From IMG/VR virus record IMGVR_UViG_3300033120_000611: a stretch of 64,000 nt of DNA; one strand, given 5' to 3'. Of this stretch, positions 41,283 to 64,000 are shown piece after piece (position 1 is the stretch's first letter; every line of letters begins with the position of its first letter). This stretch comes from a virus. Lineage: Duplodnaviria; Heunggongvirae; Uroviricota; Caudoviricetes. A model generated the notes under the pieces. The model ran no database searches and was not told the origin of the DNA. It saw only the letters and a list, made by a program, of their open reading frames with translations. Made by a program: the position numbers and the translations under genes.

Positions 41283-41300
41283 TGATAAAAACCAAAGATC

Positions 41301-42566: not shown

Positions 42567-42568
42567 TC

Positions 42569-45082: not shown

Positions 45083-45302
45083 GTTTGATATAAAGATCAC
45101 AGGACTTTATGTAAAGCTGTATATCAATGATACACTTTATGTAATGTTTAACCAAGTTGAATTCAAGGGATTACAATCTTGGAGGATGGGGAAGAATTGG
45201 TTTGTCATAGAAATTTACATCAAGGACCTAACTATAACTCTCGAGTTTGATAGCAAAGAAAAGTGGGAAGCAATTCTAAAACTCCTCGATGAGAACTTGT
45301 AG
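45072..45302 (+). CDS. small hypothetical protein
   Basis: 76 aa; start overlaps the previous gene. Confidence 0.4.
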   Translation: MENKFDIKITGLYVKLYINDTLYVMFNQVEFKGLQSWRMGKNWFVIEIYIKDLTITLEFDSKEKWEAILKLLDENL

Positions 45303-45432
45303 TCCTGGTTTATATGAACTCCTTAAGGTTAGTAATATTTACAAGCCCGGTAAGCTTACTTCTGAAGATCTTAGAAAGATGTTAGAAGCTCTTGCCAATG
45401 ACAAACCAAAAGATATTAAGTCAAAAAAGTGA
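45289..45432 (+). CDS. small overlapping ORF (47 aa), not in the track
   Basis: ATG at 45289 in the +1 frame relative to the preceding gene. I translated it by hand: MRTCSPGLYELLKVSNIYKPGKLTSEDLRKMLEALANDKPKDIKSKK. Confidence 0.25.
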   Translation: MRTCSPGLYELLKVSNIYKPGKLTSEDLRKMLEALANDKPKDIKSKK

Positions 45433-45480
45433 CTTCACTGACCGGCTTGTCGAAGTGCCTATTTTTGACTATATTGTGAT

Positions 45481-46173: not shown

Positions 46174-46655
46174 TGCCGGCAAAGAATAGTATAGGAAAGT
46201 TTCATGGTAGACATCCATTCATCGAGAAGAAGCTCTGGAAGAAATATGTGAAGCAGACTGAGAATCCAGTTAGCTATGAAGAGTTTAAACTAATCATAGC
46301 AGCATCTCTGCAAGAATTACAATCCTGGGTCCTGAAGGATCCAATAGGTTTTCAATTCTCACCAAAGCTTGGCCGGATAGCTATAAATAAATTTAAGATG
46401 TATGAAGGATTCAAAACCTTTATACATAAAAAAGGAATTGGTCGTATACAGAATCATAATCTTCACTCTGATGAGCATGCATTCAAAATACAATGGTTTC
46501 ACTCTCAGACCTCACATAAGAGTAGGATGCCATACTGGTTCTTTAGAGCTGAGAGATCTTTTAACCGAGATCTTGCCAGGGTACTAAAAGGAGGTAAAGC
46601 TCCGGAATTTAATTCCTTTATGCAAGATCACTTTGTACAAAAACTACCTAGTTAA
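46173..46655 (+). CDS. hypothetical protein
   Basis: 160 aa; start overlaps the previous stop. Confidence 0.45.
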   Translation: MPAKNSIGKFHGRHPFIEKKLWKKYVKQTENPVSYEEFKLIIAASLQELQSWVLKDPIGFQFSPKLGRIAINKFKMYEGFKTFIHKKGIGRIQNHNLHSDEHAFKIQWFHSQTSHKSRMPYWFFRAERSFNRDLARVLKGGKAPEFNSFMQDHFVQKLPS

Positions 46656-47548
46656 TGGATATTATAAACTTCATTTCATCTGATAGGTTACTATCCCAGA
46701 TACAGGAGGACTTATCTTCTTATGATGCTAATAATCAATTAGATCCTGGAAGATGGTATGACTTTATCAAGAAGATTGTATCTGATCTTGGTATCTATTG
46801 CTATGAACGTAAATATGAACTAGTATGGTTAAAAAACTCTACCGGTAAGTTACCATGTAACTTTCAAGTACTGGATAGTGCATTCATGGTTAGTACAACT
46901 GAATGTCTAAATGGTTGTCCTCCAGGTGAAGGTCCACTTCACTTCCAGGGAAAGAGTATAATCTGGAATGATACTACTACTGCCTGTGCATTCCAAGACA
47001 CTAAGTGTAATGAGGGATGTGAGGATTATAGAACATGTACTGTCAATTCATTTCAAGAAATTACCGTCAGGGAGTATGTTCGTGGCTTACCTTATACCTA
47101 TTCTTTACCTCTCATATATCCTCTACACATCAATAGAAGGAATTCTAAAAGTTGGTGCCTTCCTCATTCAATATGTTTTGGATCTAAAGCAAAGGATGAG
47201 ATAAGCATAGCTAATGGAACTGTATACACTAACTTTGATGAAGGTGTTGTACTTCTTAACTACTACGCGTATCCATACGATGATGAGGGCCTTCCTATGA
47301 TCCCGGACAATCCAAAGATACAATTAGCTGTAGAACAATATATAAAATGGAAAGCATTTGAGATACTATGGACTAATGGTGATGATGCTGGGGCACAATC
47401 TAAGATGCTATACTTTAAGAACGAATTTCAAACAACTTCATATCCGGATGCTGAGTATTATGTCAAGCTGACATCTATGAGTGATATGATGAACATGGCT
47501 AGAACTAATAGGAGACGCCTTAGTATCTACCAACTTATACAAAAGTAA
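46655..47548 (+). CDS. Cys-rich hypothetical structural protein
   Basis: 297 aa with CLNGCPPGEG...CAFQDTKCNEGCEDYRTC. Its start overlaps the previous stop, and its stop abuts the giant gene. Confidence 0.45.
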   Translation: MDIINFISSDRLLSQIQEDLSSYDANNQLDPGRWYDFIKKIVSDLGIYCYERKYELVWLKNSTGKLPCNFQVLDSAFMVSTTECLNGCPPGEGPLHFQGKSIIWNDTTTACAFQDTKCNEGCEDYRTCTVNSFQEITVREYVRGLPYTYSLPLIYPLHINRRNSKSWCLPHSICFGSKAKDEISIANGTVYTNFDEGVVLLNYYAYPYDDEGLPMIPDNPKIQLAVEQYIKWKAFEILWTNGDDAGAQSKMLYFKNEFQTTSYPDAEYYVKLTSMSDMMNMARTNRRRLSIYQLIQK

Positions 47549-50500
47549 ATGGCCAAGAAAGAACCAAATATTCCTATAGCTGGGATGGTGGATGTACACC
47601 CAATGAATATAAAGGATAATCAATATCCTCTTATGTTGAATGGTAATATACAGACAGATATCAGCTCAGGAATTACTCTTACTAACGAACACTCTAATCT
47701 GCTCTGCAATAACTTGCCGGCGGGATACTCTCTTATTGGATCTCTATTTGTTCCAGGAGATAATATTACATACGTATGGCTTGTAAATAGAGATAATAAT
47801 AAATCTCAGATTGGGTACCTATCGGAATATATTCTAGATGAGGACCAAGACGAGTATATCGATAATACATGTAATGAGTGTGTAAAGAAAAAGCAAGAGG
47901 CTATCCCACTGGAAAAGAGGGATCAGTCTGAGCTATGTCAATACACATGTATCTCTGCAGCAGATTGCCTTGCTTTTAATATAGACTTCCCTGTAAGGAA
48001 AGCTGTTATAAAGAAGGATAATTGTGGTGATACTCTATATTTTACTGACTTCCTTAATCCAGTTAGGGCTCTTAAGCTTACACTAGACCATAAGATTGAC
48101 GATACTCAACGTACTGTTATAACTCCAGCTACATGTGATGATCCGGCTGTATATGCATCATACTGCAGTTATAATGACCTTGACTGTATTCAGATACTCC
48201 TATTCCCACAAGCTAATCACATAGGAGTCACACCAGAGTTAATATCATCTGGTGGAACTCTACGTGCCGGGACATACCAGCTAGCTGTAGCTTATGCTAC
48301 TAAGGATGGCCATAGAGCTACAAGGACATTCTCTGTATCTAATCCAGTTAGTATATTTGATCCTCATCAAACGGTTACAAGCCAGCTAGATTATACAACA
48401 GACCTATCTATCAAATTTCTAATAGAGAATCTTGATAATAAAGAGTATAGATTTATTGATGTATTTGTAATAGCTACTATCAATAGAGTTGGATCGGTTA
48501 AGCAATATGGTCCCATAGATATAAGCGCTGTTAAAGATGGAACTCTTGAGTATAGAGTTTCAGACTTTGAAAAGGGAATGGATGTATCCATAGATGATGT
48601 TTTCCAGAACTTCCCTATATATGAGAAAGCTCAGGAGATTACATCTGCAGGTGACACACTACTATTAGGTAATCTCACTGGCCCCCGAGATCTCAATCTA
48701 CAAAGAGCTGTTAATAATCTATCTCCTACTGTGAGATGGTCTACCGCAGAAGCTCCAGAGGATATATATGCTGATGGTATAGCTGATGCTAATTCTCGTG
48801 GTTATCTTAGAGATGAGGTATATCCATTAGGAATAGTTTTCGAAAGAAACAACACTCAATATACATGCGCCTTTCCTCTAATAGGAAGGGATATAGATGT
48901 TGTATTCTGGCCTGAAACTCAAGGACCTGATGTACTTCCAGATGGAACTAATATTTTATTCAGGGGTATATGGAACCAATATCTAGCTGCAAATGGTGGT
49001 TATGATACTGGATCTATAGTTACTTACAATGGAGACTACTACGTAAGTACAGCTGATAATAATGGTAATATTCCTGGTGGCCCAGATTGGAGTAGCATCA
49101 CTGCTGGTGATCCTATCTACTTCTATAGTACCGGATCATTTAGTGATATATCTACAGTTAATGGGGCTGATGCATTTCAGTATCCTGGATGTGCTAGTGA
49201 CCCTGATTATAACTTAAGATGGAAGGTATATAACACAGCTAATAATTTAGGGCAGCTTCCTTGCACAACAGCTATCAATAGTGGATTAAGTTGCGTCTTA
49301 AAGACTGTCCATATAGGTTGCTCATCATATACATTTAAGTCATCTACATTACTATTAGAATCTCAAACTGGGGATTTTGTAGTTGGAGATGTATTAACTG
49401 GATCTGGTGGTGTAGGAACTATCCTATCCATTTCACAGCAACATGGTCTAATACCATATGTCACACTTGATACGACTACTATTACTGGTGGCTCTTCTGC
49501 ATTCGCTAATGGAGATAATATAACTGGTAGCATTAGTGGAGCTACAGCTACAGTGTCTATATTTAACTTAGGAGACACTCCACCTAATGACTGCTACATT
49601 TCATCAACTGATACTGGAGATTGCGCTACTAACTATCCAACTCCATATGATGATCCATCACTAGCTCCAAGTGATCCACTTTGCTCAGACCCAAATCCAG
49701 ATCCACAACCAAAGAAGGATCCAGATTGTAATACCCCTAATGTAAGACCTCAATCATTAGCTGCATCTTCTGGTATTTTGTGTGTTGATGGCCAGTTACT
49801 TGAGTACCCAAATAACTTAAGTGAGCCATATGCGTATAGGACTTCTTTTAAACAGAAGGAAGTTATACCTCTTCAAACTAATGATTACTATGTATATAAT
49901 CTTAGTAGATTAATTACTGCAGTTCCAACTCCACCATCACCAACCCCAACTCTATCCGGAGGACCGTTTGAAGGTAGTATCCCAAGACTAGCTACAAATA
50001 ATGGTACTTGGATCTGGCCTGGTGGAAACTTTAGTCCTACACCAATTAATAACTTATCAACTCAATCCCTACAGGTTCCACCTATAACAGAGAATCAGGG
50101 TTGCTCAGAATATAATAGTACTACTCTTGCAACAATAAATGTTGTTGGTGATGGACCTAGATACTTTCTAGGTGATTCAATAGATCCTCCAGTTGGTAGT
50201 ACTGGATGTTCATTCTGTAGTACTGGATGTTCTGGTGACTTTAGTGATTGCGATCCTATTGCACCAGCATCAGATTACTGGGGTATAGGTGCTCAGACAT
50301 TTATAGGAACAACTGACAGAAATACGACTGGATATCAAAGTAGATGGTATAAGATAAATGCCACTACTCCTTCAATGATAATCAAGATGAAGCTTGGATT
50401 TTCTGATTCTACAACGTTTGCAGATGGAGATCTAAGAATAGATGTATATGCTGGAAATCCATTTGGTATTCCAGTTTATTCAACAGGTACAGATTCAGTC

Positions 50501-53500
50501 TCTCCTGCTGACTATTGCTATACTGCCGGCGGTACGGTTGATACTGGAGTTCTTGTAATAGGAGATGTAGCTGGATCTGTTACTACAACTACACATAATG
50601 GAGCAACACTTCCACAAGAACCACTAATACAAGGTCTTGATTATTATATTCATATATATCTGCTTCCAGCAGGTACAGCTAAACTAAATGGTCCAGCTTA
50701 CTATAACTGTTACCATGATGGTGCAAGTACAACTAGCCCGGCTAGTAAAGCTACCACATGTTACCTAGTTCGTTATGCATGGGCTAACTTCTGTATTGAA
50801 TATCCTACAGCCAGTACAACTAAGACTGTTACTACACCTGCGATTAGTTCAATGAGTTGTGAGTACGATATCATTTATAGAATAAAAGAGGTCCCTAATG
50901 TTGCTTGTAATCTAAGTCCATTTGAATATGGTAACTTTGCTTTCTGGCAATCAGAGACTAAAACATATCCACAAAACCCAGAAGTATGGGGAGAAATGTG
51001 TGGAAAACAGATTAGGCACTTTAAGTTCCCAGACTGTCTGGTATCTTATCTTCAAGATGAAGATCAGATAAATCTTGGAGTAGCCGGTGGAGATTCTGGA
51101 TACACTGCTAACAATGCTCGTAAGGCTAGAGTATATCCTATGGGGTGGAAGATTGATCCAGAGGATGTTAAGGCCTGGCTAGTATGGGCTGTAAGTGAAG
51201 GTCTTATTACTGAGTCTGAGAGACTATCTATTACAGGTTATAAACTCGTTAGAGGTAATAGAGTTGGTAATAAATCGATACAAGCTAAGGGACTACTATA
51301 TGATATGTTCCGGTACAAGCAAAGAGATTGGGTGAATGGAACATTTTCTAATATACCATACTACTTTGCTAACTATCCATTTAATGACCTAAGGCCAGAT
51401 CCATATCTTTCAGAGAGTGGACTTGGTGCTATCCAAGCTCCTGAGAATGGAGCTGGTAATAGTAAGTATGCATTCCTATCACCTGATACGACTTTTAATT
51501 CTCCTACCTTAGGAACTGAATTAAAGCTTGAAGCAGCTAACTTTGGTGATAGTCTCGGACAGTTCTATGAAGTACTTAACCATCCTAAGTGGGTTCTACT
51601 TGGTAATGGAGGTATTATACTAGTAGGTGTATTAGCTGGTATACAACTAAGCGCTGACCTACTTGTTCTTCTTGGACAGCTATATGGTACTCAGATCGTT
51701 GGTTTAGCAGATAGTATACCTACAGGATTTATTATAGGGCTTGTTGGTGGTATATTGAATCTAGTTCCGAATCTATTCAAGTACATGCATGACTGGAATA
51801 CTCTAATAACAAACTTTGGAGTTCCATTTAACTTTGCTAGATACTATGCTGCAGTAGGTAACTACCATAGCTCAGGTATAACTGGACAGATACTAAATGA
51901 TGCTTCCAATAAGAGAAGACCCATAGGAACCTATAGCTATCTACTATCAGGTAATATAAGCCTATCTAGTAGTGGTGTCCTGGAAAGGATTAATAACTAT
52001 GAGAGAGAGGACTCAGTATATATAGATCTTGGGGATCTAAGCCAGGGATTTGTATATGCAAGTACAGCCATAGATAGAGCTGTAAAGGGAGATTTTAGTA
52101 AGTTTACTCTTACAGCTAGTACAAGTAACAATGGCCCGGGATGTAGCATGACTGATAGGGGAGGAACAGTGGCATCATTATATGCTTCTATCAAGAGTAG
52201 TGTTCCAGACCAGTATGGGTCTATACAAGATATACAGTGGCTATTCACCGGTAAGTATGTAGCTATAGATTGGGATAGTCAACAAGCAGAGCAATGTGAT
52301 CCTATCTATGGTGGTGATACATTTATATCAAGAATGACTCAGAAGAGAAAGCTTCCATTCTTCCTTGATAATCCTGTTGGTGTTGATACAAGTGTAGATT
52401 TCCAATATCAACATTTAAGTAATATCACTGATGCTAACTTCTTTGTTAACTCTGTTGGTGAGTCTAGCCTTAACTCTAGCGCAATCCAGTTTAAAACTGT
52501 AGAGCATAATCTACAATATTGCGGAGCTGGATCTGGAGATGGAAAGATCTATATCAAGGGATATATGTATCTATTCTCTTACGGAATAGTTTCGTTCATT
52601 GGCGAATCTGATTTCAATCTGAACTTCAGGTACGCTGAAGATACTAAGTTCAGAGACTTCTACCCACATAATAGTGACGTAGAAAACTGGACTCAGGAAT
52701 ACCGTATACCAATAGAAACTCCCAATGCGTATTTATACAATAGAGATTACTCTAAGCAAAATACAGAGAATGTCTTCTGTACACAGCCGGTGATATACCA
52801 TAATGATGATTGTAACTTCATGTATAAGAATAGAATAATCAATTCTATAACTGATACTGATTCAGACTTCTACATGGATAACTGGAGAATATTTTTAGCA
52901 GAGGATAAGAAGGATTTTGATCTAGTAAATGGTCAGCTTACTGGTCTAGATGGTATAGAGAGGGAGAAGGTATTAGTAAGATTTGGAAATACGTATAATA
53001 TATTCAATGCCTTTTATACTATTGATACTGGACAAGGTACTGCTCAAATAGGCACTGGATCTATGTTCGCTCAGAAGCCTGAGGAGTATGCTAAGACAGA
53101 ACTTGGATATGGTGGAACAGAACACCATGCTTTTGCATCAACTCAGTTTGGACACTTCTGGGTGGATGCTAGAAGAAGTTCTGTATTCATGTTACCTCCC
53201 GGATCTGGAGCTGCAGAGGAAATATCATCTAGTTATAATAACTTCTTTAATAATAACCTACCATTTTATATATTAAAGGATTTCCCTCAGTACAATGTGG
53301 ATAATAACTATAAGGATATAGGTATAACTTTAGTATGGGATAATAGGTTTGACAGACTAATACTCACAAAGCTAGATTATGCATTAAGGTCATTTTATAG
53401 AAATAAGATAACTTATGACGGGTCTAATTTCCTACTTGATGGAACTATAGTGCAACTGACTGATGAAGAGTACTTTTGTAATAAGTCATGGACAATAGGA

Positions 53501-54202
53501 TACTCTCCTTTAACCAAGTCATGGATAGGGTTCTACTCATTTGTTCCAAACTATTATATCAGCTATGAGAATTACTTTCAATCTGGAGTTAACTCTGTAA
53601 GGCCGGGAGCAGATAGGATTGGTATATGGAATCACCTTATTACTAACAAATCATACCAGGTTTATTACGGCACCCTATATCCTTTCATAACTGATGTAGT
53701 AGTGAAGGACCAGCTAGTTAACAAGCAATTACAATCCATAGAATACCAAGCAGACTTTTTAAGGTTTCAAGATGACTTTGATTATTTTTACAATCCTGGA
53801 GTTACTTTCAACAAGATGGTCATCTGGTCTGAGAACCAAAATTCTGGCGTACTTAACCTTGTACCTCAGGTACCGAACGACCTTAGTCAAGCTGTACGCT
53901 ACCCAATGTACAATTCTGGTTCCACTACTATTATGGTAACTAGGAAAGAGAATAGTTGGAGAGCCAATCAGTTCTCGGATATAGTAGCTGATAAGTATAG
54001 TAATGTGCCACCAATGATCTTAGGTTGTCATCCATACCTCAAAGAGGTAAATATGAATGCTGTCAATTATAATAAGCCTACGTTCCAAAGAAGTAGATTT
54101 ACTTCAGACTACTTTACTCTAAGATTGATAAATGATCAGTACAGTAACTATAAAATAATCGATAAGTGGTTCTTATCAAATAACATCATATCAACAACAT
54201 AA
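47549..54202 (+). CDS. giant virion protein (2217 aa): G/T/S/N/Y- and Cys-rich, with an internal ~60-aa hydrophobic TM-like segment; tail, muzzle or ejection (cargo) protein candidate
   Basis: Single uninterrupted ORF. Extracellular-type composition and a Pro/Asp-rich linker (CSDPNPDPQPKKDPDCNTPN). A hydrophobic block WVLLGNGGIILVGVLAGIQLSADLLVLLGQLYGTQIVGLADSIPTGFIIGLVGGILNLVPNLF maps to about 51586-51780. No RNAP-type DxDGD motif found. Confidence 0.6.
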   Translation: MAKKEPNIPIAGMVDVHPMNIKDNQYPLMLNGNIQTDISSGITLTNEHSNLLCNNLPAGYSLIGSLFVPGDNITYVWLVNRDNNKSQIGYLSEYILDEDQDEYIDNTCNECVKKKQEAIPLEKRDQSELCQYTCISAADCLAFNIDFPVRKAVIKKDNCGDTLYFTDFLNPVRALKLTLDHKIDDTQRTVITPATCDDPAVYASYCSYNDLDCIQILLFPQANHIGVTPELISSGGTLRAGTYQLAVAYATKDGHRATRTFSVSNPVSIFDPHQTVTSQLDYTTDLSIKFLIENLDNKEYRFIDVFVIATINRVGSVKQYGPIDISAVKDGTLEYRVSDFEKGMDVSIDDVFQNFPIYEKAQEITSAGDTLLLGNLTGPRDLNLQRAVNNLSPTVRWSTAEAPEDIYADGIADANSRGYLRDEVYPLGIVFERNNTQYTCAFPLIGRDIDVVFWPETQGPDVLPDGTNILFRGIWNQYLAANGGYDTGSIVTYNGDYYVSTADNNGNIPGGPDWSSITAGDPIYFYSTGSFSDISTVNGADAFQYPGCASDPDYNLRWKVYNTANNLGQLPCTTAINSGLSCVLKTVHIGCSSYTFKSSTLLLESQTGDFVVGDVLTGSGGVGTILSISQQHGLIPYVTLDTTTITGGSSAFANGDNITGSISGATATVSIFNLGDTPPNDCYISSTDTGDCATNYPTPYDDPSLAPSDPLCSDPNPDPQPKKDPDCNTPNVRPQSLAASSGILCVDGQLLEYPNNLSEPYAYRTSFKQKEVIPLQTNDYYVYNLSRLITAVPTPPSPTPTLSGGPFEGSIPRLATNNGTWIWPGGNFSPTPINNLSTQSLQVPPITENQGCSEYNSTTLATINVVGDGPRYFLGDSIDPPVGSTGCSFCSTGCSGDFSDCDPIAPASDYWGIGAQTFIGTTDRNTTGYQSRWYKINATTPSMIIKMKLGFSDSTTFADGDLRIDVYAGNPFGIPVYSTGTDSVSPADYCYTAGGTVDTGVLVIGDVAGSVTTTTHNGATLPQEPLIQGLDYYIHIYLLPAGTAKLNGPAYYNCYHDGASTTSPASKATTCYLVRYAWANFCIEYPTASTTKTVTTPAISSMSCEYDIIYRIKEVPNVACNLSPFEYGNFAFWQSETKTYPQNPEVWGEMCGKQIRHFKFPDCLVSYLQDEDQINLGVAGGDSGYTANNARKARVYPMGWKIDPEDVKAWLVWAVSEGLITESERLSITGYKLVRGNRVGNKSIQAKGLLYDMFRYKQRDWVNGTFSNIPYYFANYPFNDLRPDPYLSESGLGAIQAPENGAGNSKYAFLSPDTTFNSPTLGTELKLEAANFGDSLGQFYEVLNHPKWVLLGNGGIILVGVLAGIQLSADLLVLLGQLYGTQIVGLADSIPTGFIIGLVGGILNLVPNLFKYMHDWNTLITNFGVPFNFARYYAAVGNYHSSGITGQILNDASNKRRPIGTYSYLLSGNISLSSSGVLERINNYEREDSVYIDLGDLSQGFVYASTAIDRAVKGDFSKFTLTASTSNNGPGCSMTDRGGTVASLYASIKSSVPDQYGSIQDIQWLFTGKYVAIDWDSQQAEQCDPIYGGDTFISRMTQKRKLPFFLDNPVGVDTSVDFQYQHLSNITDANFFVNSVGESSLNSSAIQFKTVEHNLQYCGAGSGDGKIYIKGYMYLFSYGIVSFIGESDFNLNFRYAEDTKFRDFYPHNSDVENWTQEYRIPIETPNAYLYNRDYSKQNTENVFCTQPVIYHNDDCNFMYKNRIINSITDTDSDFYMDNWRIFLAEDKKDFDLVNGQLTGLDGIEREKVLVRFGNTYNIFNAFYTIDTGQGTAQIGTGSMFAQKPEEYAKTELGYGGTEHHAFASTQFGHFWVDARRSSVFMLPPGSGAAEEISSSYNNFFNNNLPFYILKDFPQYNVDNNYKDIGITLVWDNRFDRLILTKLDYALRSFYRNKITYDGSNFLLDGTIVQLTDEEYFCNKSWTIGYSPLTKSWIGFYSFVPNYYISYENYFQSGVNSVRPGADRIGIWNHLITNKSYQVYYGTLYPFITDVVVKDQLVNKQLQSIEYQADFLRFQDDFDYFYNPGVTFNKMVIWSENQNSGVLNLVPQVPNDLSQAVRYPMYNSGSTTIMVTRKENSWRANQFSDIVADKYSNVPPMILGCHPYLKEVNMNAVNYNKPTFQRSRFTSDYFTLRLINDQYSNYKIIDKWFLSNNIISTT

Positions 54203-54624
54203 TGGAAAGCAAACCTAAACTGGTATTAAAGCTACCAGAAGTAAAAGAAGGAACTCCATCTGCATTTATTAACTGCATATTGACTAGTGCAGTCATAGTG
54301 CATCAAATGCATCTAAGCGTGGAAGGACCATCTGCTTATGAAAAGCACAAAGCTTTAAATGATCTATATGAAGCATTACCGGATCATGCAGATTCTATTG
54401 CTGAAGCATACCAGGGACATAAGGGAATTATAATAAAACCCTATCCAAGTATGGATCAAACAAAGTACATGAATATGGATCCACTACAGTTTGTTGAATG
54501 GTTACTTAATTATGTTGAGAACACAAGAGGGTCTATGGGAACTGTATCGATGATACAAAATTTAATAGATGAACTTGTACAATCAATAGCATCAACCAGA
54601 TACAAACTGAAATTTTTGAAATAA
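54202..54624 (+). CDS. small helical protein with weak Dps/ferritin-like four-helix-bundle resemblance
   Basis: 140 aa. VHQMHLSVEGPSAYEKHKALNDLYEAL...DSIAEA loosely follows the Dps pattern (FHW-V-G--F---H-LFEE-Y-EL---D-IAE). Start overlaps the giant gene's stop. Confidence 0.35.
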   Translation: MESKPKLVLKLPEVKEGTPSAFINCILTSAVIVHQMHLSVEGPSAYEKHKALNDLYEALPDHADSIAEAYQGHKGIIIKPYPSMDQTKYMNMDPLQFVEWLLNYVENTRGSMGTVSMIQNLIDELVQSIASTRYKLKFLK

Positions 54625-54745
54625 CATCCTAATGCAAATAAGTTCAACAATGTTCATAATATTGATTATATTAGGTTCAGCTATTGTTGGATACGTATTT
54701 TACAAATATGATGATAGTGAAATTGACGACCTTTAATATAATACA

Positions 54746-57700
54746 ATGAAAGATAAATTACCGACAGCAAAGTCTGGAATACATATCAATCCCAAGAACA
54801 AGGGAAAGTTTAACGCTACTAAGAAAGCTACAGGAAAGACTACTGAGGAATTAACTCATAGTAAGAATCCTGTAACTAGGAAACGTGCTATCTTTGCACA
54901 GAATGCAAAGAAGTGGCATCATAAAAAGAATGGTGGTAGGATTCCCTATGCTGCACTTGGAGATCAAATCTCTGTCAATGGTGGTGGATATAACTGGAAT
55001 ACTAATGATCCAAACGCTCCACAAGCTCCGGACCCAGGATATCCATATAACATACCAGTTGCTAATCAGAGTTTAAATACTTCTGCTGCATTACCTCCAT
55101 CTACTGATAATACTCCAGCTCCAGGTAATGGACCTGTTCCTTTATCTACTAGGAGAAATCCTAGGAACTACTGGCCTCTTGGATATAATCCAGGAATGGC
55201 TGCATATAGTTTTGATAAAGCTGCTGATGCTAGGGTAGCCGGTCAACGTACAACTGATCCTACTTTACAAAATCAATACCATCATGAGATGGTGGGTAAT
55301 AATGTTGCCGGCGCTGGATATACTATGGCTTCTGTATTTAATGGAGTAGAGAATATACTTGGTCCAATATCTGCAGAGATAGCTACTAGAAGAGCTAATA
55401 TGAATGAGAGAGCCGCCTTTAATCGTAATAATAGAGAGAGAGCTGAAGTTAATCCATATAGAGGAGATGATTCTCAATTAGGTAATGGTACAAGAGCTGC
55501 ATATGAATATGGTGGAATGGTTCCATCATTTGAATATGGTGGAGTTCCTACAGAAGGGAGTGACTTTGATTCAGAGAATCCTAATGTCATAACAGAACGT
55601 GGAGAAACTATTACAGATCCTACAAGAGGTCCTATGGGTCCAAATGGGCCTACTGGTGTAGTTGTTCATGACCAGACTGGAGATTTACACTCAGCCCCAT
55701 CTGGTGGTAACTCTTATAGACTTGGACCAGACTCTGTTATTCACTCTAAGAGTCTTGGAGTTACTGTAGCTGACTTTGTAAAGTATGCTGCAGGTTTTCC
55801 TAATGCTGATTTTATAGTTGGTAAGATAGCTGCCAAGTTCCCTAACCCAGATCGTAAGGTATCCTTTGCTCAACTAGCTTCTGTATTTGATACAAGTGAT
55901 CTTGTAAAAGAAGTTGGTAAGATAGCAAAGAAGGCCAATAAGATTGACGAGAAAAGTCTTGGTACAGATGATACTCATATCACTCAGGTGACTGATAAGC
56001 TCAATAAGAAGACTCTTGCCCACCAGGATGAAGAGACTAAACAGGAGATAGAAGCTAATGCGCAAGTAGCTGGTCCGGATGGACCTATACATAGGATGGC
56101 TGAACATCTCAAGAAGACTGGAGCATATGGAGAAGAAGTAAAGAATGATGATGGCTCTGCGAAATATGGGAAGAAGATAATGAAGGGGAAGAAACTTCTT
56201 CTACCAACTGCAGGCAATGGTGCTAAGATCAAATCTGCTATACATGAGAATGCATATAGGATTGATCCTAACGAGTCTGGAGATTATGGAGAAGATAAAG
56301 TAGCTCAAAGACTTTTAAATCAGGGATTTACACCTGAAGAAGCTAGTCATATCATAGATAGATCAAAAGATCCTTTAGCTACTAATATGCCGGCATCAGT
56401 AGCCCCGGTGGATGGAGGTATTGGTTACATGCCTGGTCTTGATGAATTAAATCTATACAGTGGTAATAAGGACTTACTTCATATTGATAAGTATAGACCT
56501 GATGCTAATCTAAATGCACGTCAACCATTTGACGAATCTCAGGCAGATCAATCTAATTACAAAATGGGTGGAAAGATAAAGAAATACGCAAGAGGTGGAA
56601 AGAGGATATCTGTTCCAACTAATGATACTAATCTGGATAATGAACTTCCTCCAGATACAATACCATTAGATCCTAACTTCGGTGGAGATCCAAATGATAC
56701 ACAAGACTATAGTATCATAGATAAGAGTGGTGCTCCTGCAACTACTCCATCTCCACAAGGATTTGGTATGCCCATCTATAATAATGGGGTATACGCTAAT
56801 ACCGGATATAATGATATGACATCTGATGAGTATGACATGCTGTACCCTAATATGCAAAATGCAGATAGGGAGGCTGGTAGACAACTTGTAAGAAGTGGAC
56901 AGATCATTCCTTCTGGAGACTTCACAAAGGTTCCAACTATATACCACCAACCACTTAACCCGGCTGGTACATATGGTGCAGCTATGCCATGGGAGAAACT
57001 TGCTAGTGATCCTAATAGTGGTCGTGGATACTATAAAACATATGCTCAAGACTATAAGGCAAATCAGATCTTCAAGAAGAATTTTGCTGAGCTGACTCCG
57101 CAAGAGCAAGCACAAGTTACTGGATGGAGCCCAGTTCAAAAGAATAAAGCCGGCCAGTATGAAGTTGATCCAGGTTATGTAAAGTATCACCAGAGTAGGT
57201 ATAACCAAGCCTTACAAGAAGAACATCCCGGATATCACTACTATGATCCAAATGGAGATCCTAATAAGAATCCTTGGAGTATAGATGCTAAGTCTGGAGA
57301 GATTACTACAAATGAGCCATGGCTTGTTCGTAAATCTTATGGTAGTGTAGGGGCACCTGCAATGGAATACTCTAAGAGTGAACCAGTTGTATATGTGAAT
57401 GAGGCTGGTAAAAAGGTCGTAGCGCCTACTCAACCAGTTCAACCTGCAGATCGTCCAGCTTCACCGGGGATGGCTATTAGAAGAAGGATTTACCAAGAAG
57501 GTCTTGATCCAAGACAGATTATCTCGCCCCTGGCTGCTTTGTTTGAGCCTAGGGAAGCAGTGCCTTATATAGAAGATCAAGGTGCTAAGGATGCTCTTGC
57601 TATGACTACAAGACAAAGATTTACTGATATACAGCCAGGCCTCAATAGAATAACTAGGGGAGCTCAGGCTGCTACTAGATATAATCCTCAGAATAATCAA

Positions 57701-58216
57701 GCTTACAATGCTCAGGTAGCTGCTAATGCTTGGACAGCTGAGAATGAACTACAGGGTCAGAAGTTCAATAATGATAATCAGATTGAACAAACCTATAATG
57801 ATCGTCAGGCTCAACTTAGACAAGCGGCCGGCACTAATAAGGCTAGAGCTCTTGATACTCTTGCTCAAAGAACTGCTACTGCAAAGTGGAAGAAGACTGC
57901 TATGGATATCAATGCTTTAGGTGAAATTGGAAACAAGAGTCTCCAGAACAGCTTAGAGAACAAGACTGCAGCTTTATACCAAGATATGTTCCCTAACTAT
58001 GGATATGATCCCTTTACAGGAACTACCTTTACAGGAGGCTCAGCCGGATATCCACAGATTGGTCCTTCTACTAGAACTGAACATAGTAGAGTTGTTAAGA
58101 AGGAGGATGATGGATCTGAGACTACTACCATAACATATAGGGATGGTACTGTCCACAGTATCAAGACTCCAAGAAAGAAGTTCGGGGGTAAACTACCCAA
58201 GAAGAAATCAAAATAA
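54746..58216 (+). CDS. large low-complexity virion protein (1156 aa), internal/ejected cargo-protein candidate
   Basis: Basic N-terminus (KNKGKFNATKKATGK), long N/P/G/Q/Y-rich disordered segments, short repeats (YEYGGMVPSFEYGGVP), and a basic C-terminus (KKFGGKLPKKKSK). Confidence 0.5.
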   Translation: MKDKLPTAKSGIHINPKNKGKFNATKKATGKTTEELTHSKNPVTRKRAIFAQNAKKWHHKKNGGRIPYAALGDQISVNGGGYNWNTNDPNAPQAPDPGYPYNIPVANQSLNTSAALPPSTDNTPAPGNGPVPLSTRRNPRNYWPLGYNPGMAAYSFDKAADARVAGQRTTDPTLQNQYHHEMVGNNVAGAGYTMASVFNGVENILGPISAEIATRRANMNERAAFNRNNRERAEVNPYRGDDSQLGNGTRAAYEYGGMVPSFEYGGVPTEGSDFDSENPNVITERGETITDPTRGPMGPNGPTGVVVHDQTGDLHSAPSGGNSYRLGPDSVIHSKSLGVTVADFVKYAAGFPNADFIVGKIAAKFPNPDRKVSFAQLASVFDTSDLVKEVGKIAKKANKIDEKSLGTDDTHITQVTDKLNKKTLAHQDEETKQEIEANAQVAGPDGPIHRMAEHLKKTGAYGEEVKNDDGSAKYGKKIMKGKKLLLPTAGNGAKIKSAIHENAYRIDPNESGDYGEDKVAQRLLNQGFTPEEASHIIDRSKDPLATNMPASVAPVDGGIGYMPGLDELNLYSGNKDLLHIDKYRPDANLNARQPFDESQADQSNYKMGGKIKKYARGGKRISVPTNDTNLDNELPPDTIPLDPNFGGDPNDTQDYSIIDKSGAPATTPSPQGFGMPIYNNGVYANTGYNDMTSDEYDMLYPNMQNADREAGRQLVRSGQIIPSGDFTKVPTIYHQPLNPAGTYGAAMPWEKLASDPNSGRGYYKTYAQDYKANQIFKKNFAELTPQEQAQVTGWSPVQKNKAGQYEVDPGYVKYHQSRYNQALQEEHPGYHYYDPNGDPNKNPWSIDAKSGEITTNEPWLVRKSYGSVGAPAMEYSKSEPVVYVNEAGKKVVAPTQPVQPADRPASPGMAIRRRIYQEGLDPRQIISPLAALFEPREAVPYIEDQGAKDALAMTTRQRFTDIQPGLNRITRGAQAATRYNPQNNQAYNAQVAANAWTAENELQGQKFNNDNQIEQTYNDRQAQLRQAAGTNKARALDTLAQRTATAKWKKTAMDINALGEIGNKSLQNSLENKTAALYQDMFPNYGYDPFTGTTFTGGSAGYPQIGPSTRTEHSRVVKKEDDGSETTTITYRDGTVHSIKTPRKKFGGKLPKKKSK

Positions 58217-58281
58217 TTAATTTAAGTGAAAGCACTGATTTATTTGGAAATAGTGTTTTTATCCATTAAATTCGCCTCTCC

Positions 58282-59997
58282 ATGCCAGTAACGTTCGAAA
58301 CAGACTTAAAAGATCTTAAGGAATTTGGATATGTTCCACAGATTCCTATCCAAGCTTTATTCCAAAACCTGGGATATAAGCAGCAAAGATATGATCAGGC
58401 CGCTCAGGATATTCAACATCAGCTTGATAATCTATGGGATATACCATCCTATGGACAGGATACTGTTCGTAAACAACAGATTATTGATGATGTTAATTCC
58501 AAGCTAAAAGACTTTGCCGGTAAAGATCTAGGAACTGATCAAAGAGCTAGAGCTGATTTACAAGCTCTCATAGGTCAGACAATTAATTCCCCAGATCTTC
58601 AGGGTATTGCTGCCAGGGGAACTTGGTATAAGCAACTCCAAGCTAAGAGAAGAGAACTAACTAAAGATGGTTCCTCAATAGCACCATGGAATGATCCGGC
58701 TCAGAACCCCGAGGTAAATGCTTATTTCAGTGGAGCAGTTCCATTCGACCCTAACAAAAGGTTCGATCACCTTGATGTTACTAAGGATGTGGATATGAAT
58801 GAGTTTGGCAAACAAGTAAATGCTACTGTTCCTGAATCTGAATGGATCGCAAAGAGGGGTATGTATAATGACAAGTTCAAAGCTAAGGGAGAGAATACTC
58901 TGACTGCAGCATATCTTGAAAGACTACAGAATAATCCAGCGGCCCTAAGAGAACAAAGATCAAAGTTTGATTATGAGAATGCCGGAACAAACTGGAAAGA
59001 CGTGGGTAATAGGGAGTATATGGCAACAAGACTTAGTGCTCTACAGAACGTCAATATGATTAAGCAGAAGCAATCTCTCAAACCACCTACAACTCCAGAT
59101 GAGAAAGCTATGTACGCTGCTGAGCTGGAAGATGCTACTAATGCAGTAACTGAATTAGATCAGCAACACCAGTATAGTGATCCATCTATACGTAAGGAGA
59201 AAGCCTTTAAAGATTACCTTACTAGCCTAGCAGCAAATCATGCTAGAGCTACTATGTACCATAATAATACTGAGCATACCTTAGATGATGTAGATAAGAT
59301 GGGCATTCAATTACAGAATGACCTTAAGAAGATATCTGCAGAAGGTGACAAAGAGATTAGAGTCAATGATGCTAAGGAAGCTGCTAAGAGTGGCGGGGGA
59401 GCTTTTGGATCTATATTACTAGATGATTTTATGAGAAGTCTTAAAGCGCCTACTGGATCAGTTTCTGGTGACTCTAAGTTCTTTACACTAATAGCTGGTA
59501 AGAAGTATGATGCTAGTAATCCATTAACAACTAAGGATCTCGCTAAGGACCTGAATATTCCTAATGCAGAATCAATAGCTGGAGATAATAGCTGGACTCC
59601 TATCAACCACGTTCCGGAGGTAGTAAATAAAGCTGTAGGCCAATTAAGTATAAAAACTGAAGATGGCGTAACTATTCACCCGGCAAATTTGGTTACTGAC
59701 GAAAAAAGTAATAGACTTGTATTCAAGTCTGCTGATGGAAAGACTATAGGTTATGTGGTTAATGTTCCAAACACTGATGGATCTGTTACTAAACAGTTCC
59801 AAACTATGGACCTGGATGCTGCTAGAACCCATGCACTTATAGGAACATCTAAGGCAGCTCAACAAGCTATCCTTAATTATACAGAAAATGATTTTAATAA
59901 CAGGGAGGCTGTAAAGGCTTCAAAGAAACCTGCAGCTACAGTAGTTGCTGCTCCTAATGCAGCTTATACAAATCCTAAAGATACAACCAACTTCTAA
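58282..59997 (+). CDS. virion-associated hypothetical protein (571 aa)
   Basis: Charged, helical ORF between the two large proteins. Its stop overlaps the start of the next ORF (TAATG). Confidence 0.45.
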   Translation: MPVTFETDLKDLKEFGYVPQIPIQALFQNLGYKQQRYDQAAQDIQHQLDNLWDIPSYGQDTVRKQQIIDDVNSKLKDFAGKDLGTDQRARADLQALIGQTINSPDLQGIAARGTWYKQLQAKRRELTKDGSSIAPWNDPAQNPEVNAYFSGAVPFDPNKRFDHLDVTKDVDMNEFGKQVNATVPESEWIAKRGMYNDKFKAKGENTLTAAYLERLQNNPAALREQRSKFDYENAGTNWKDVGNREYMATRLSALQNVNMIKQKQSLKPPTTPDEKAMYAAELEDATNAVTELDQQHQYSDPSIRKEKAFKDYLTSLAANHARATMYHNNTEHTLDDVDKMGIQLQNDLKKISAEGDKEIRVNDAKEAAKSGGGAFGSILLDDFMRSLKAPTGSVSGDSKFFTLIAGKKYDASNPLTTKDLAKDLNIPNAESIAGDNSWTPINHVPEVVNKAVGQLSIKTEDGVTIHPANLVTDEKSNRLVFKSADGKTIGYVVNVPNTDGSVTKQFQTMDLDAARTHALIGTSKAAQQAILNYTENDFNNREAVKASKKPAATVVAAPNAAYTNPKDTTNF

Positions 59998-62900
59998 TGC
60001 CAGAAAATATAGATCTCCTTTATACGAAGCTATCTGCTAAGCAAGGTATCAATCTACCGGATATTCAAACCTTTAAACAAAGGTATGATAATCCAGATGG
60101 AATGGCCTTGCTACATAGCAAGATGTCTAACATGGCTAATGTAAATATACCTGACCTTGAAACATTTAAGGGAAGATATATGAGTCCTCAGGGAACGCAG
60201 GCTACTCAATCAGCTGAACCTGATTATGATTTTATTAAGAGTCTCTATGATAAGAAACCTATATCTGAGGCTGTTTCAACTATACTTGGGGATACCCCTG
60301 ATGTCCCTGAAAAGCCAGTAAAGACTGGAGAACCAACTGGTGATCCATTCATAGATGCTGGTATGTATGTATACAACAAATTCTTTAATAAGGAGTTTGA
60401 TAAAGAAGCAGCTAAATCAGCCGGAGATAAGTTTGATGCATATCAACAACCATCAAAACCTGAGGCTTTGCCTACATTCTCATCTCCAGAGCAGGAGAGA
60501 GATTATCATCTTACTAAGATTAAGGACGTAACTGCTAAGACAGATAGCGCTCTTAATAACATCATTAGGGCTTCTGGCGCAGAACCAAGTCCGACTAGTC
60601 AGAAAATCTTTGCTGCCGGCCTTGGACTTAATACTGAGTTCACTCAAAATAGTGATGGAGAACTAATAAAGGTTTATAAGCCTCTACCTGGTGCTCCAAA
60701 TGTTCAACAGATTGAAGATCAGAAAAAGCAGGTAGCTGACTTCTATGCTAATAAGATAGATGAGGTAGATAAGAAGTACGACAAGAGTGTACATGATCTA
60801 TACTCTACATTTGGTGTAAGCCTTGTCCCTAACTTTGTTAAGGAATTACTTCCGGACCCTAATATAGCTAAGCTTAATGGAGATAAGAAAAAAGAGATAG
60901 GAGATATTATTACTGAACGTGATAAGACCCTATCTTTACTAAATACCAAGCTACTTGATACTACACCTATATCAAAGTATGATGAGGATGGAGTTGATAT
61001 CAGTAAGATATCTAGTATAACAAATAATGATAACCTAAGTGCTCAGGATAAGATAGCTAAGTTATCACAATCTATTGATCACTTTAAGGCTGTAAATAAA
61101 GACCTTAAACTAGACATTGATCCTCAGACTCAAAATTCTGAGTTTATGTCTGCTGCCCAACAGCGTGGTATAGATCTAATGTATGCTGATAATCCTAATG
61201 TTCAGGCAGTTAAGAAGGATGTCTATGGACATTACATTAAGGATGGTCTTGGATACTCAGATGCAATTACAAGACAACAAGCATTATATGTAGGAGCTGT
61301 TGATCTATTCAATAGAGCTAGCTCTGAAGTTGAAGCCGGAATTGAATCCCTTAAATCTAATAATAGGGAGATGGCTCAATACCAGAATATTATAACCGGT
61401 GGTAAGCCAGTTAAGCTTGGTCCTAATCTTGTTACTCCAGAGAAGGCTAGAGAGAAGCTACAAGAACTAGCTGCTCTTAATACTTCTATCACTGAAGCTA
61501 TCAAGTCACAAAGAGATTACAAAGATAATCTCCAGTCTATCATAGATGATAAGACTCTTTCATATCAATCTCAGTTAAAGCAACAGGAGAGAGTTAATAA
61601 GCTTAGCGCTTACGCACCAATAACTACAAGACTCACTGAGTCAATATCAGATATATCAGCTAATCTGGCTAAGGCAGAAGTATCAAGAATCCAGGACTGG
61701 ACAGCTGCGGATAATAAAGCTGCAGCTCTACATGAGATTCTAACTAATGACTTTGATAAGGCTTTTATCAAGACTCAGGTCATGGATAAGTTCGATAATA
61801 CATTGAAGACTTATGCTGAAGAAGAAGCCATACAACTATATGATGATAAGGGAAACTGGAATCCATATGTAAATCCACAAGCTATTTGGTACAATACAGT
61901 TAAGACTGGTATTGAGAGTGAGATACTTGGGGGATTTATGTCAGCTGGGAAGTACCTAGCTGATCCTTTGTTTAAGGGATTAGATGCTGCTATTACAAGA
62001 GGAGCTGATAACCTTATGACTAAGGTTGCCGGGCCATATGATTTTGAGACTGCTTCATTAGGAAGATCTGCTTTCAAAGTCGGAGGTGGTATACTACAAG
62101 ATGGTATTATCAAAGCTGGTAACTTTGCTACTCAGGGATACGTAGCCACAATGCTTCCTACATACATGATGTATGGTGATCAAATGATAGATCAGGAACT
62201 TGCTAAAGGCCTAAGCTATCATGATGCCCATGAGGTAGGAAAGTATAGAGCTTATGTAGAAGGATTTACTGAGCTTGCATTTAAGAATGAAATGAACTTC
62301 TTTAACCAGACTATTGGTTCAGGAGGTATAAGAAACTTTGCTCACCTAGCAGAAGATGATGTTTATCGTAGACTTATCCTGGATGCTTCTACAAGGAAGT
62401 TTGGAACAGAGATGGGACTTAAGGTAGCCAATGCATATTTTACTGGTGGTAAGGTAGCTAAAGAAGTTATAAAGGTACTTGCTGAGGAAGCTGGGGAAGA
62501 AATAGAAGGTAATGTACTAAATGCTAAGGTAGTAGATCCAATAGCTAAGAAAGCTCAACCTGGCTACTTATCTTCTGAAGATCTAACCTTTCAGAATGCT
62601 ATTAATACTGCCATTACAACTGCAGCTACTATGCTTCCAATGGGAGGCACGATGGGATTAAATATACACAAGGAGAACTTGTCTGCAAGAGAGCAGGCTA
62701 GATTTACTATTGGCCAGAACCCAGAAACATATCTAACAACTCTATTATCTGCATATAATGCCGGAGCTATCTCAAAGCCTGACTTTGAGAGACAGGCAGC
62801 TGCAGTTAATACTTATAAGACTGCTCACGACACTGCTTTAGGTATTGCATCCCAGAATCCAAACTGGCACATGTACAACCAACAAGAAAGAGATCTTCTT

Positions 62901-64000
62901 TCTTTCAGGTTGTTTAACAACTTAGCTACGCAGGAAAGACTATCTAAGAATCTTGCTGAGGCTCAAACTGACGAACAAAAGGCTACTCTAGTTAAGTCCC
63001 TGGACTTCCTATCTTCAAACTTTCTAGAATTAACTAGTAAGGGTGTATACAAGTCAGAAGAAGATCGGGTATCCCATAAAACAAAAGAGTTAAACTACTA
63101 TGTAAATCCTGAATCTCTGAAGGTATACAATGATGTAACTACCCTGGCCAACATAGGCAAGCAACTTGTTAGTGAGGTGACTAATGAGCCTAGTCAGAAA
63201 CTAAAGGACCTATATAATCAGAAATCTGAGTTAGTTGCTAATAGGATAAAAGAAGTACGTGCTGCTGAAGAAGAAGCGGCTAAACCAGAAACTGATAAGG
63301 CTGATGCTAATAATGAAGCTAGGACTATAGGTATAGTAAGAGATGGTAAGGAGGAAACATTGGATATGAATACTCCATACTACGCATCACGTATAGAAGA
63401 TGTATCTACTACCGGTAAGAAAATAATAACCAGGCCAGAAATAACTATTCTCCATGATAATGGAGATGGTACTGTGCTAGTATCTAGTAATGGAGAAACA
63501 GCTACTCTACCTAAAGATGATCTAAGTAAATTCAAGTTTACCAAGAAGAGTACTATCGAAACTATGAGGAAGGCTGGTGATCCTAAAGCATTTGCTTTTG
63601 ATCACGAGAATGATGTATTCTCATATGACTTTAATAGCGCTACTGAGGATCGTCCTAAGACAGTTGAGGGTCGTATAAAGTATAATCCTACTTCAAATGC
63701 TATAGAGCTTGTGTACAAGAATAGCAAGGGAAAGACTTTATCTTATAAACTAAGTAAGTCAGACCTAGCTAAACTATCTGATAATAGTTCACGTCTCAAG
63801 TTTAAGAGAACATTAGAGACTGATGCTGAGTATGGAGCTAAGCAAGCTATTCTCCAGAAGGAAGCTAGTGCAACAAACTTTGATAATCTACAATCTCAAT
63901 CAGCTAGACGTGCTGAGTTTATAAAGCAATATATAGACTCTAAGGTAGAGTCTTTGAAAGCTAATAGGGAACAAGTACGACTAACTGAAAATAGTCTTCT
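59997..64000 (+). CDS. very large ORF (more than 1334 aa), truncated by the window end; virion/cargo protein candidate
   Basis: I translated it by hand from the ATG at 59997 and it stays open to 64000 with no stop. It is absent from the ORF track, presumably because it is incomplete. K/E/D-rich and helical. Confidence 0.6.
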   Translation, partial: MPENIDLLYTKLSAKQGINLPDIQTFKQRYDNPDGMALLHSKMSNMANVNIPDLETFKGRYMSPQGTQATQSAEPDYDFIKSLYDKKPISEAVSTILGDTPDVPEKPVKTGEPTGDPFIDAGMYVYNKFFNKEFDKEAAKSAGDKFDAYQQPSKPEALPTFSSPEQERDYHLTKIKDVTAKTDSALNNIIRASGAEPSPTSQKIFAAGLGLNTEFTQNSDGELIKVYKPLPGAPNVQQIEDQKKQVADFYANKIDEVDKKYDKSVHDLYSTFGVSLVPNFVKELLPDPNIAKLNGDKKKEIGDIITERDKTLSLLNTKLLDTTPISKYDEDGVDISKISSITNNDNLSAQDKIAKLSQSIDHFKAVNKDLKLDIDPQTQNSEFMSAAQQRGIDLMYADNPNVQAVKKDVYGHYIKDGLGYSDAITRQQALYVGAVDLFNRASSEVEAGIESLKSNNREMAQYQNIITGGKPVKLGPNLVTPEKAREKLQELAALNTSITEAIKSQRDYKDNLQSIIDDKTLSYQSQLKQQERVNKLSAYAPITTRLTESISDISANLAKAEVSRIQDWTAADNKAAALHEILTNDFDKAFIKTQVMDKFDNTLKTYAEEEAIQLYDDKGNWNPYVNPQAIWYNTVKTGIESEILGGFMSAGKYLADPLFKGLDAAITRGADNLMTKVAGPYDFETASLGRSAFKVGGGILQDGIIKAGNFATQGYVATMLPTYMMYGDQMIDQELAKGLSYHDAHEVGKYRAYVEGFTELAFKNEMNFFNQTIGSGGIRNFAHLAEDDVYRRLILDASTRKFGTEMGLKVANAYFTGGKVAKEVIKVLAEEAGEEIEGNVLNAKVVDPIAKKAQPGYLSSEDLTFQNAINTAITTAATMLPMGGTMGLNIHKENLSAREQARFTIGQNPETYLTTLLSAYNAGAISKPDFERQAAAVNTYKTAHDTALGIASQNPNWHMYNQQERDLLSFRLFNNLATQERLSKNLAEAQTDEQKATLVKSLDFLSSNFLELTSKGVYKSEEDRVSHKTKELNYYVNPESLKVYNDVTTLANIGKQLVSEVTNEPSQKLKDLYNQKSELVANRIKEVRAAEEEAAKPETDKADANNEARTIGIVRDGKEETLDMNTPYYASRIEDVSTTGKKIITRPEITILHDNGDGTVLVSSNGETATLPKDDLSKFKFTKKSTIETMRKAGDPKAFAFDHENDVFSYDFNSATEDRPKTVEGRIKYNPTSNAIELVYKNSKGKTLSYKLSKSDLAKLSDNSSRLKFKRTLETDAEYGAKQAILQKEASATNFDNLQSQSARRAEFIKQYIDSKVESLKANREQVRLTENSL

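Follow-up and report, generated by a model that had tools for sequence, protein, structure and literature searches.

We analysed a 64,000-nucleotide stretch of DNA from a tailed virus (Duplodnaviria; Heunggongvirae; Uroviricota; Caudoviricetes; IMG/VR record IMGVR_UViG_3300033120_000611), called the window below, and characterized the giant genes that fill its last part, from position 47549 to 64000. These genes form an uninterrupted run, all on the + strand, encoding proteins of 2217, 140, 34, 1156 and 571 amino acids (aa), followed by a reading frame that is still open at the window end. We assign the region, with a probability of about 0.85, to the set of distal-tail and ejected-protein genes of a crAss-like podophage, which follows the ring-protein genes in one + strand run. 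An earlier note, made from the sequence letters, had listed the open reading frames (ORFs) of 2217, 1156 and 571 aa and the frame running off the end at 64000; all four are present, and the 140-aa gene and a 34-aa ORF had been left out of that list. The run comprises the following features.

47549-54202, + strand: ORF of 2217 aa, predicted muzzle gene
51584-51817, + strand: predicted hydrophobic helical hairpin, muzzle residues 1346-1423 (Kyte-Doolittle hydropathy and AlphaFold2, AF2)
54202-54624, + strand: ORF of 140 aa, DUF5856 / ferritin-Dps-like gene; its start overlaps the muzzle stop codon
54632-54736, + strand: ORF of 34 aa with one hydrophobic helix
54746-58216, + strand: ORF of 1156 aa, cargo-protein-1-like gene
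54758-54934, + strand: ultra-conserved basic module, residues 5-63 of the 1156-aa protein (sequence conservation)
58282-59997, + strand: ORF of 571 aa, gene in the cargo protein 2 position
59997-64000, + strand: start of the putative 4733-aa virion RNA polymerase (RNAP) fusion gene; ATG at 59997, 1334 codons, no stop

To follow the last frame past 64000 we used Logan contig SRR32380196_3401 (90.7 kilobases, kb; L006), which was matched exactly via the 571-aa protein and is identical to the window across the 15.7 kb overlap. On this contig the open ORF reaches 4733 aa and is followed by a 1776-aa gene, after which gene orientation reverses. The gene order equals gp43-gp44-gp45-gp46-gp47 of crAss001 and that of IAS virus. 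In crAss001, the gp43-gp50 block encodes ring protein 1, the muzzle gp44, cargo protein 1 (C1) gp45, cargo protein 2 (C2) gp46 and the RNAP-associated gp47, gp49 and gp50 (Bayfield et al. 2023, PMC10172136).

The first giant protein, of 2217 aa, matched PHROG 37948, annotated 'virion structural protein', at E=4e-198. Its family counts 160 or more metagenomic members with lengths of 1500-2500 aa; Pfam PF25731 crAss_MUZ ('Crassvirus muzzle protein') is present in several of them, and the homologue in csAssE-Sib carries the depositor annotation 'Muzzle protein'. With a 36-sequence family profile, crAss001 gp44 (PDB 7QOK) was matched at E=1e-8; the alignment falls into three collinear stretches, which lie at the two ends of the protein, N- and C-terminal. 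We modelled residues 1100-2217 with AF2 from a 48-sequence alignment, obtaining a mean predicted local distance difference test (pLDDT) score of 78.4, and a Foldseek search with this model returned 7QOK_A as the top match (E=3.5e-21, probability 1.00, TM-score 0.27), followed by podovirus tail and nozzle proteins (SU10, E1004 and the tail-protein entry 7EY9). The predicted fold combines a beta-propeller with beta-rich domains, as is typical of nozzle proteins. The gene starts at 47549, directly after the ring protein 1 gene that ends at 47548, and in crAss001 gp44 likewise follows gp43. The crAss001 muzzle gp44 is a hexameric external gatekeeper of the tail tip (PMC10172136). By profile homology and predicted fold, the 2217-aa protein is thus best described as a gp44 homologue, the predicted external, cysteine (Cys)-rich gatekeeper at the tail tip. 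Its composition is rich in G (8.0%), S (8.0%), T (7.8%), N (7.4%) and Y (6.3%), with 40 Cys, which bears out the earlier description of an extracellular-like, Cys-rich protein. Residues ~436-1679 are collinear with gp44 392-966, within the IG2/crass-domain region of gp44 (318-1021), and this collinear region is about twice as long in the window muzzle as in gp44.

At the other end of the run, the 4733-aa protein (P0001) shows a recognisable polymerase core. Its residues 3618-4112 matched phi14:2 gp66 (PDB 6VR4) at E=2.8e-25, and DFDID at residues 3777-3781 aligns with the catalytic DFDID (1361-1365) of gp66. Additionally, residues 3287-4092 matched crAss001 gp50 (E=4.5e-26, BLASTP) and residues 2259-2387 matched gp47 (E=4e-9), a hidden Markov model (HMM) of the RNAP core matched gp50 (2e-63), and DFDxD was found in all 20 homologues compared (20/20; 3666-4817 aa). 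A second barrel gave only a weak match, residues 3066-3184 to gp66 803-921 (E=0.65). Counted from the ORF start, the catalytic core (residues 3032-4486) falls 9-13.5 kb downstream, wholly past the window; the DFDID motif falls at ~71325 in window numbering, ~7.3 kb beyond its end, and the gene continues for ~10.2 kb past 64000, so that the window holds the non-catalytic N-terminal quarter. Within that quarter (residues 1-1334) there is no D.D.D motif, and the RNAP core HMM gave noise only (sequence E=8, negative scores). Only one homologue extends, in part, over the first ~1000 residues, which are lineage-specific; family-wide conservation, in the gp47-like region, sets in at about residue 1045. 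On sequence grounds, the open ORF is a fusion of gp47-like and gp50-like (virion RNAP) parts. The earlier note had expected a polymerase in the truncated ORF or past 64000, and that is where the core lies.

An RNAP inside the 2217-aa protein was also considered and was rejected, in agreement with the note: the protein has no DFDxD motif, its only D.D.D motifs are the two that had been named, DEDQD (residue 97) and DTDSD (residue 1769), and the RNAP core HMM gave no match at E up to 100 with filters off.

The phi14:2 polymerase gp66 is a virion-packaged, single-chain RNAP with two barrels, and some crAss-like phages are reported to have the three RNAP-block proteins fused into one polyprotein (Drobysheva et al., bioRxiv 10.1101/2020.03.07.982082). 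The match to gp66 covers ~500 residues around DFDID. Unlike gp66, the window RNAP occupies the C-terminal part of a polypeptide of more than twice the length, and gp66 has no counterpart to the in-window residues 1-1334. Past the window, the 1776-aa protein (24209-29539 on the Logan contig L006) carries a PD-(D/E)XK domain (PF12705, residues 425-565, 27.5 bits with a cutoff of 22) and shows weak similarity to crAss001 gp49. We also observed two short repeat copies (…INLPDIQTFKQRY… and …VNIPDLETFKGRY…) at the N-terminus of the 4733-aa protein, encoded at 59997-60170; the homologue P0002, the sole one that covers this end, shares it over residues 1-103.

Between these two giants lie the putative cargo proteins. 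The 1156-aa gene comes after the muzzle gene in order, like gp45 in crAss001, and residues 12-58 of its product matched crAss001 gp45 376-424 with 53% identity (E=2e-8). The same module is 81% identical to residues 275-326 of IAS virus gp060. This basic module occupies the first ~60 residues of the 1156-aa protein (GIHINPKNKGKFNATKKATGKTTEELTHSKNPVTRKRAIFAQNAKKWHH). A search with it matched 1128 proteins; among the 120 matches listed, identity was 70-94%, in proteins of 640-1790 aa that are otherwise dissimilar. The module's position may be N-terminal, internal or C-terminal, and a second, diverged copy often lies adjacent; peptidoglycan-hydrolase domains (glucosaminidase, YkuD, amidase_2 or SLT) occur in some carriers as well. 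Many carriers contain PF25725, the Crassvirus cargo protein 1 domain (crAss_CARG1), starting at the module end; in protein P0235, for example, the module spans 241-300 and PF25725 begins at residue 289. In gp45 itself the module (376-424) immediately precedes the portal-bound domain and is not among the segments resolved by cryo-electron microscopy, in which that domain comprises residues 425-552 (PMC10172136). A second conserved region, at ~890-1150 of the 1156-aa protein, is common to the C-termini of many module-bearing proteins.

The 48 module codons compared with IAS virus comprise 27 that are identical, 14 that differ synonymously and 7 that differ non-synonymously. With synonymous differences in 14 of the 41 conserved codons, it is the protein sequence that is conserved. 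Recent DNA transfer was considered as a cause of this conservation and was rejected on the same comparison, in which a third of the conserved codons carry synonymous differences.

The 1156-aa protein contains no Cys and has a net charge of +13 over its first 60 residues and +8 over its last 60, as the earlier note's basic termini would have it; its description as largely disordered holds in part, with 31% of 41-residue windows poor in order-promoting residues. The lack of Cys, the basic termini and the place of its gene behind the muzzle gene are indirect signs of packaging in the capsid and tail. We read it from its sequence as an internal protein resembling cargo protein 1, its architecture rearranged.

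The 571-aa gene ends at the start codon of the 4733-aa gene, and its product likewise has 0 Cys. Its family, with 112 representative sequences mostly of 480-600 aa, is conserved over the first ~350 residues, and the family HMM detected homologues in Lbo-JY46 (845 aa, 4e-43), csAssE-Sib (993 aa, 6e-13) and phi17:2 (gp040, 8e-10), the last of which is annotated 'virion structural protein'. In phi17:2 and csAssE-Sib the homologue stands directly before a giant gene, in the relative L009 it holds the same position, and in Lbo-JY46 it precedes genes of 1552 and 2748 aa. The AF2 model (pLDDT 79) consists mainly of long helices. A Foldseek search of this model against BFVD gave nine matches at E ≤ 0.001, of which all but one, an unnamed entry, come from phi17:2, Virus NIOZ-UU157 or uncultured crAss-like phages. 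Against PDB the search returned nothing significant; the best matches, at E ~0.3, were long helical proteins including components of alpha-pore-forming toxins, which we do not count as evidence. The 571-aa protein thus sits where crAss001 has gp46 (cargo protein 2), at roughly its size.

The proteins of the block also divide sharply by Cys content. The muzzle has 40 Cys (1.8%) and three upstream tail proteins (40662-43399) have ~5%, with 1.22% over all upstream ORFs, and the 1156-, 571-, 4733- and 1776-aa proteins together have 2 Cys in 8236 residues. The same split was found in crAss001, phi17:2, Lbo-JY46 and L009. The split fits external tail parts stabilised by disulfides, as reported for crAss001 (PMC10172136), and Cys-free cargo would suit proteins that must unfold for passage through the channel.

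Several results weigh against reading the run as a crAss-like tail-tip and cargo block. The 2217-aa sequence on its own matched no Pfam entry (E up to 0.1) and no PDB entry, and the muzzle assignment therefore requires the family profile or the predicted fold. The 1156-aa protein gave no PF25725 match, either within residues 1-300 (E up to 10) or over its whole length (E up to 0.1), and it lacks the N-terminal transmembrane helix of gp45, its Kyte-Doolittle maximum being 0.87 as compared with 1.73 in gp45 (136-158). The identity of the 571-aa protein with gp46 was tried and could not be shown by sequence: hhalign of a 40-sequence profile against gp46 was collinear (66-240 with 65-237) at E=0.12 and a probability of 0.5%, and the family HMM gave a non-significant E=3.2. 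The placing of these proteins in the virion of this phage draws on crAss001 and phi14:2. Direct searches gave little in general. Namely, as single sequences the four large proteins had no significant match in PDB, the best being a tail sheath protein at E=0.63, none of the four matched Pfam and only the 2217-aa protein matched PHROGs, and phage genomes yielded no tblastn match to the 571-aa protein or to the 1334 aa encoded in the window. The proposal of the earlier note that this is a crAss-like block with a muzzle, cargo proteins and a virion RNAP is borne out by the ring proteins, the gp44 homology, the gp45 module and the 6VR4 match, and its cargo assignment for the 1156-aa protein gains from the module common with gp45, with the Pfam C1 domain undetected.

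The muzzle carries one feature that called for separate analysis. The ~60-aa hydrophobic block pointed out earlier lies at residues 1347-1410, where the 19-residue Kyte-Doolittle mean peaks at 2.31 for the first helix and at 1.67 for the second; elsewhere in the 2217-aa protein the maximum is 1.46. Residues 1349-1411 (63 residues) contain no Lys or Arg. AF2 predicted a hairpin of two helices, 1353-1380 and 1393-1423 (28 and 31 residues), with pLDDT 81-93 at the helix bases and <50 at the tip. We then surveyed the 91 family members in which the segment could be placed in register, taking a Kyte-Doolittle value of 1.6 or more as transmembrane-like. The segment is transmembrane-like in 53 of them, including all 29 closest relatives, where it is always 73-75 residues long. 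In 21 of the 91, distant members of which many are PF25731-positive, a non-hydrophobic link of ~42 aa replaces it. Because it is transmembrane-like in 53 members including every one of the closest 29, and a short link in 21 distant ones, the hairpin is a clade-specific elaboration: it is real, conserved in character within the clade and built on a variable link, and it is not universal in muzzle proteins.

What the hairpin does can be explained in several ways. The explanation we lean towards, at somewhat better than even odds, is purely structural, namely a buried or inter-subunit helical pair that would hold the hexamer together or plug the channel without lipid contact. The good AF2 confidence at the helix bases (pLDDT 81-93) is as expected of a packed element, and the link is helical across the family, including its non-hydrophobic versions, and varies from 19 to 180 residues in length, like a loop-type insertion. 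In the crAss001 study, the crass and IG2 domains are reported to vary in length by insertions (Bayfield et al. 2023, PMC10172136). A core element, however, would be expected to be hydrophobic family-wide, which it is not, and a mean of 2.3 over 19 residues, in a hydrophobic segment that occurs twice in 60, is unusual for a soluble, beta-rich tail protein. A second explanation is an active membrane element, in which six hairpins (twelve helices) swing out at adsorption and insert into the outer membrane of the host. There they would open or anchor a channel, like the pore-forming loops of phi29 gp9, and would take over the role of the transmembrane helix in cargo protein 1 of crAss001. The phi29 tail knob gp9 is a hexameric podovirus tail-tip protein with a hydrophobic pore-forming loop; it differs from the case here in that its loop belongs to a tube protein of a phage of Gram-positive bacteria, whereas the window muzzle has a helical hairpin in a distal domain. 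Favouring membrane insertion are the 63 residues free of Lys and Arg, two helices of ~28-31 residues that are long enough for a bilayer, Lys/His and Trp/Tyr at both bases, and hydrophobicity kept in 29/29 closest relatives despite sequence drift; by collinearity, moreover, the hairpin falls in the IG2/crass-domain region, which the authors of the crAss001 structure describe as the tip that contacts the cell (PMC10172136). We nevertheless consider membrane insertion unlikely: burial of the hairpin is just as conceivable, the first helix has a conserved Asp at its midpoint, and the non-hydrophobic short link in 21/91 members shows the element to be dispensable for muzzle function generally.

A complementary distribution of transmembrane-like segments gives one hint in favour of a membrane role. 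The window phage, L009, phi17:2 and Lbo-JY46 carry such a segment in the muzzle but lack one in the cargo proteins encoded after it; crAss001 has one in gp45 (136-158), and IAS virus, of the same subfamily, has none in its muzzle. This pattern is based on about five genomes, and csAssE-Sib fits it poorly, with a muzzle maximum of 1.51 and a transmembrane-like segment in its 2208-aa protein. Taken further, it would suggest that in a lineage made up of the window phage with 28 or more metagenomic relatives, probably joined by phi17:2 and Lbo-JY46, the muzzle itself is the membrane-piercing device, its hairpin inserting into the outer membrane, and that the cargo-protein-1 homologue has lost its transmembrane-bearing N-terminal part and starts at the basic module; we hold this to be doubtful. 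Far less probable still, and indeed barely tenable, is the earlier proposal that the 2217-aa protein is an ejected, membrane-penetrating cargo protein. It has only the hydrophobic block and the large size in its favour, and it conflicts with the muzzle homology by profile and fold, with the position of the gene directly after ring protein 1, with the nozzle-type beta-propeller and beta-rich fold, and with 40 Cys as compared with a virtually Cys-free cargo set. We assign this protein to the muzzle instead.

Comparison with crAss001 places the block more closely. Both phages keep one gene order, starting at ring protein 1 and running to the first giant gene, both have gp47-, gp50- and gp49-like parts, and they agree in the muzzle profile and fold homology, the C1 basic module and the contrast between a Cys-rich tail and Cys-free cargo. 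They differ in several respects. The window muzzle has 2217 aa and a hydrophobic hairpin, whereas that of crAss001 has 1371 aa; the Dps-like gene and the 34-aa ORF are inserted behind the muzzle gene in the window only; the C1-like protein of the window begins with the module and has neither transmembrane helix nor PF25725, unlike gp45; and its gp47-like and gp50-like parts form a single 4733-aa polypeptide encoded on the same strand, unlike in crAss001.

The phage belongs to an unclassified lineage (~127 kb) near the epsilon crAss-like phages. A megablast search of phage genomes with 40000-64000 gave no DNA-level match to any deposited phage, and its large terminase subunit (TerL) is only ~23% identical to those of classified Crassvirales. 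The closest deposited genomes, with their protein identities to the window phage, are the following.

Leptolyngbya phage Lbo-JY46: muzzle 36%, TerL 38%
csAssE-Sib (epsilon crAss-like): muzzle 31%, TerL 30%
Cellulophaga phi17:2 / phi4:1 (Lightbulbvirus): muzzle 31%, TerL 26%

All of these carry homologues of the 571-aa protein, and in Lbo-JY46, phi17:2 and csAssE-Sib the giant genes after the muzzle are fused differently from those of the window phage. The relative L009 (50% identical) has the order ring protein 1 to muzzle, and indeed the whole block, arranged as in the window. The RNAP core HMM found no match in the giant proteins from the fetched stretches of Lbo-JY46, csAssE-Sib and phi17:2, whose RNAP genes may lie outside those stretches. 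The window RNAP core thus matches Crassvirales gp50 and phi14:2 gp66 readily and does not match the giant proteins of the phages closest by terminase and muzzle; this mismatch could reflect a mosaic origin or the location of the RNAP genes outside the fetched stretches.

Additional features lie within and around the block. The 140-aa protein matched DUF5856 (Pfam PF19174, E=5e-19; PHROG 858, E=1e-21) and scored slightly below cutoff for PF00210 Ferritin (24.1 bits, cutoff 24.5); in L009 (16819-17892) a DUF5856 domain occupies the same position, fused to a histidine phosphatase domain (His_Phos_1). This Dps-like gene sits between the muzzle and cargo genes, inside the virion gene block. The 34-aa ORF (MQISSTMFIILIILGSAIVGYVFYKYDDSEIDDL) encodes a hydrophobic helix and an acidic tail and is also a gene call on SRR32380196_3401; it could encode a small membrane protein or have arisen by chance. 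Upstream, the window contains the ring-protein, packaging and capsid genes, two endolysin-like genes and, in its leftward-transcribed part, three tRNA genes.

45481-46173, + strand: ring protein 2 homologue (Pfam PF25702 CrAss_Ring_2, E=2e-16, 60.8 bits, cutoff 27)
46655-47548, + strand: ring protein 1 homologue (Pfam PF24228 CrAss_Ring_1, E=4.8e-21)
22473: large terminase subunit
24709: portal
29783: major capsid protein
50-121, - strand: tRNA-Trp (CCA)
283-358, - strand: tRNA-Met (CAT)
6492-6564, - strand: tRNA-Arg (TCT)

Scans of 45000-64000 for regulatory signals were uninformative, with 65 promoter-like sites (65.2 expected) and 18 weak terminator-like sites (8.8 expected), nearly all of the latter within ORFs.

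By analogy with crAss001 and phi14:2, the block would work as follows. The 2217-aa protein would assemble as a hexameric muzzle that closes the end of the tail barrel and, like gp44, touches the cell surface, its enlarged IG2/crass-collinear region bearing the predicted clade-specific hydrophobic helical hairpin. The 1156-aa (C1-like) and 571-aa (C2 position) proteins would be packed in the capsid and tail and would exit before the DNA. The 4733-aa protein, predicted to combine a gp47-like part with a two-barrel virion RNAP of the gp50 / phi14:2 gp66 type, would be delivered to the cell and would transcribe the early genes.

These results do not overturn the picture of crassvirus virions, and the block is a known kind of gene set. 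They allow most of the large unannotated genes in a ~127-kb crAss-like lineage, whose closest isolates infect a cyanobacterium and a marine Bacteroidota, to be named, and they show in this lineage a virion RNAP that is clearly recognisable by its DFDID and is joined to a gp47-like protein. Two points, the ~50-residue basic module and the hairpin, deserve the attention of specialists in phage entry.

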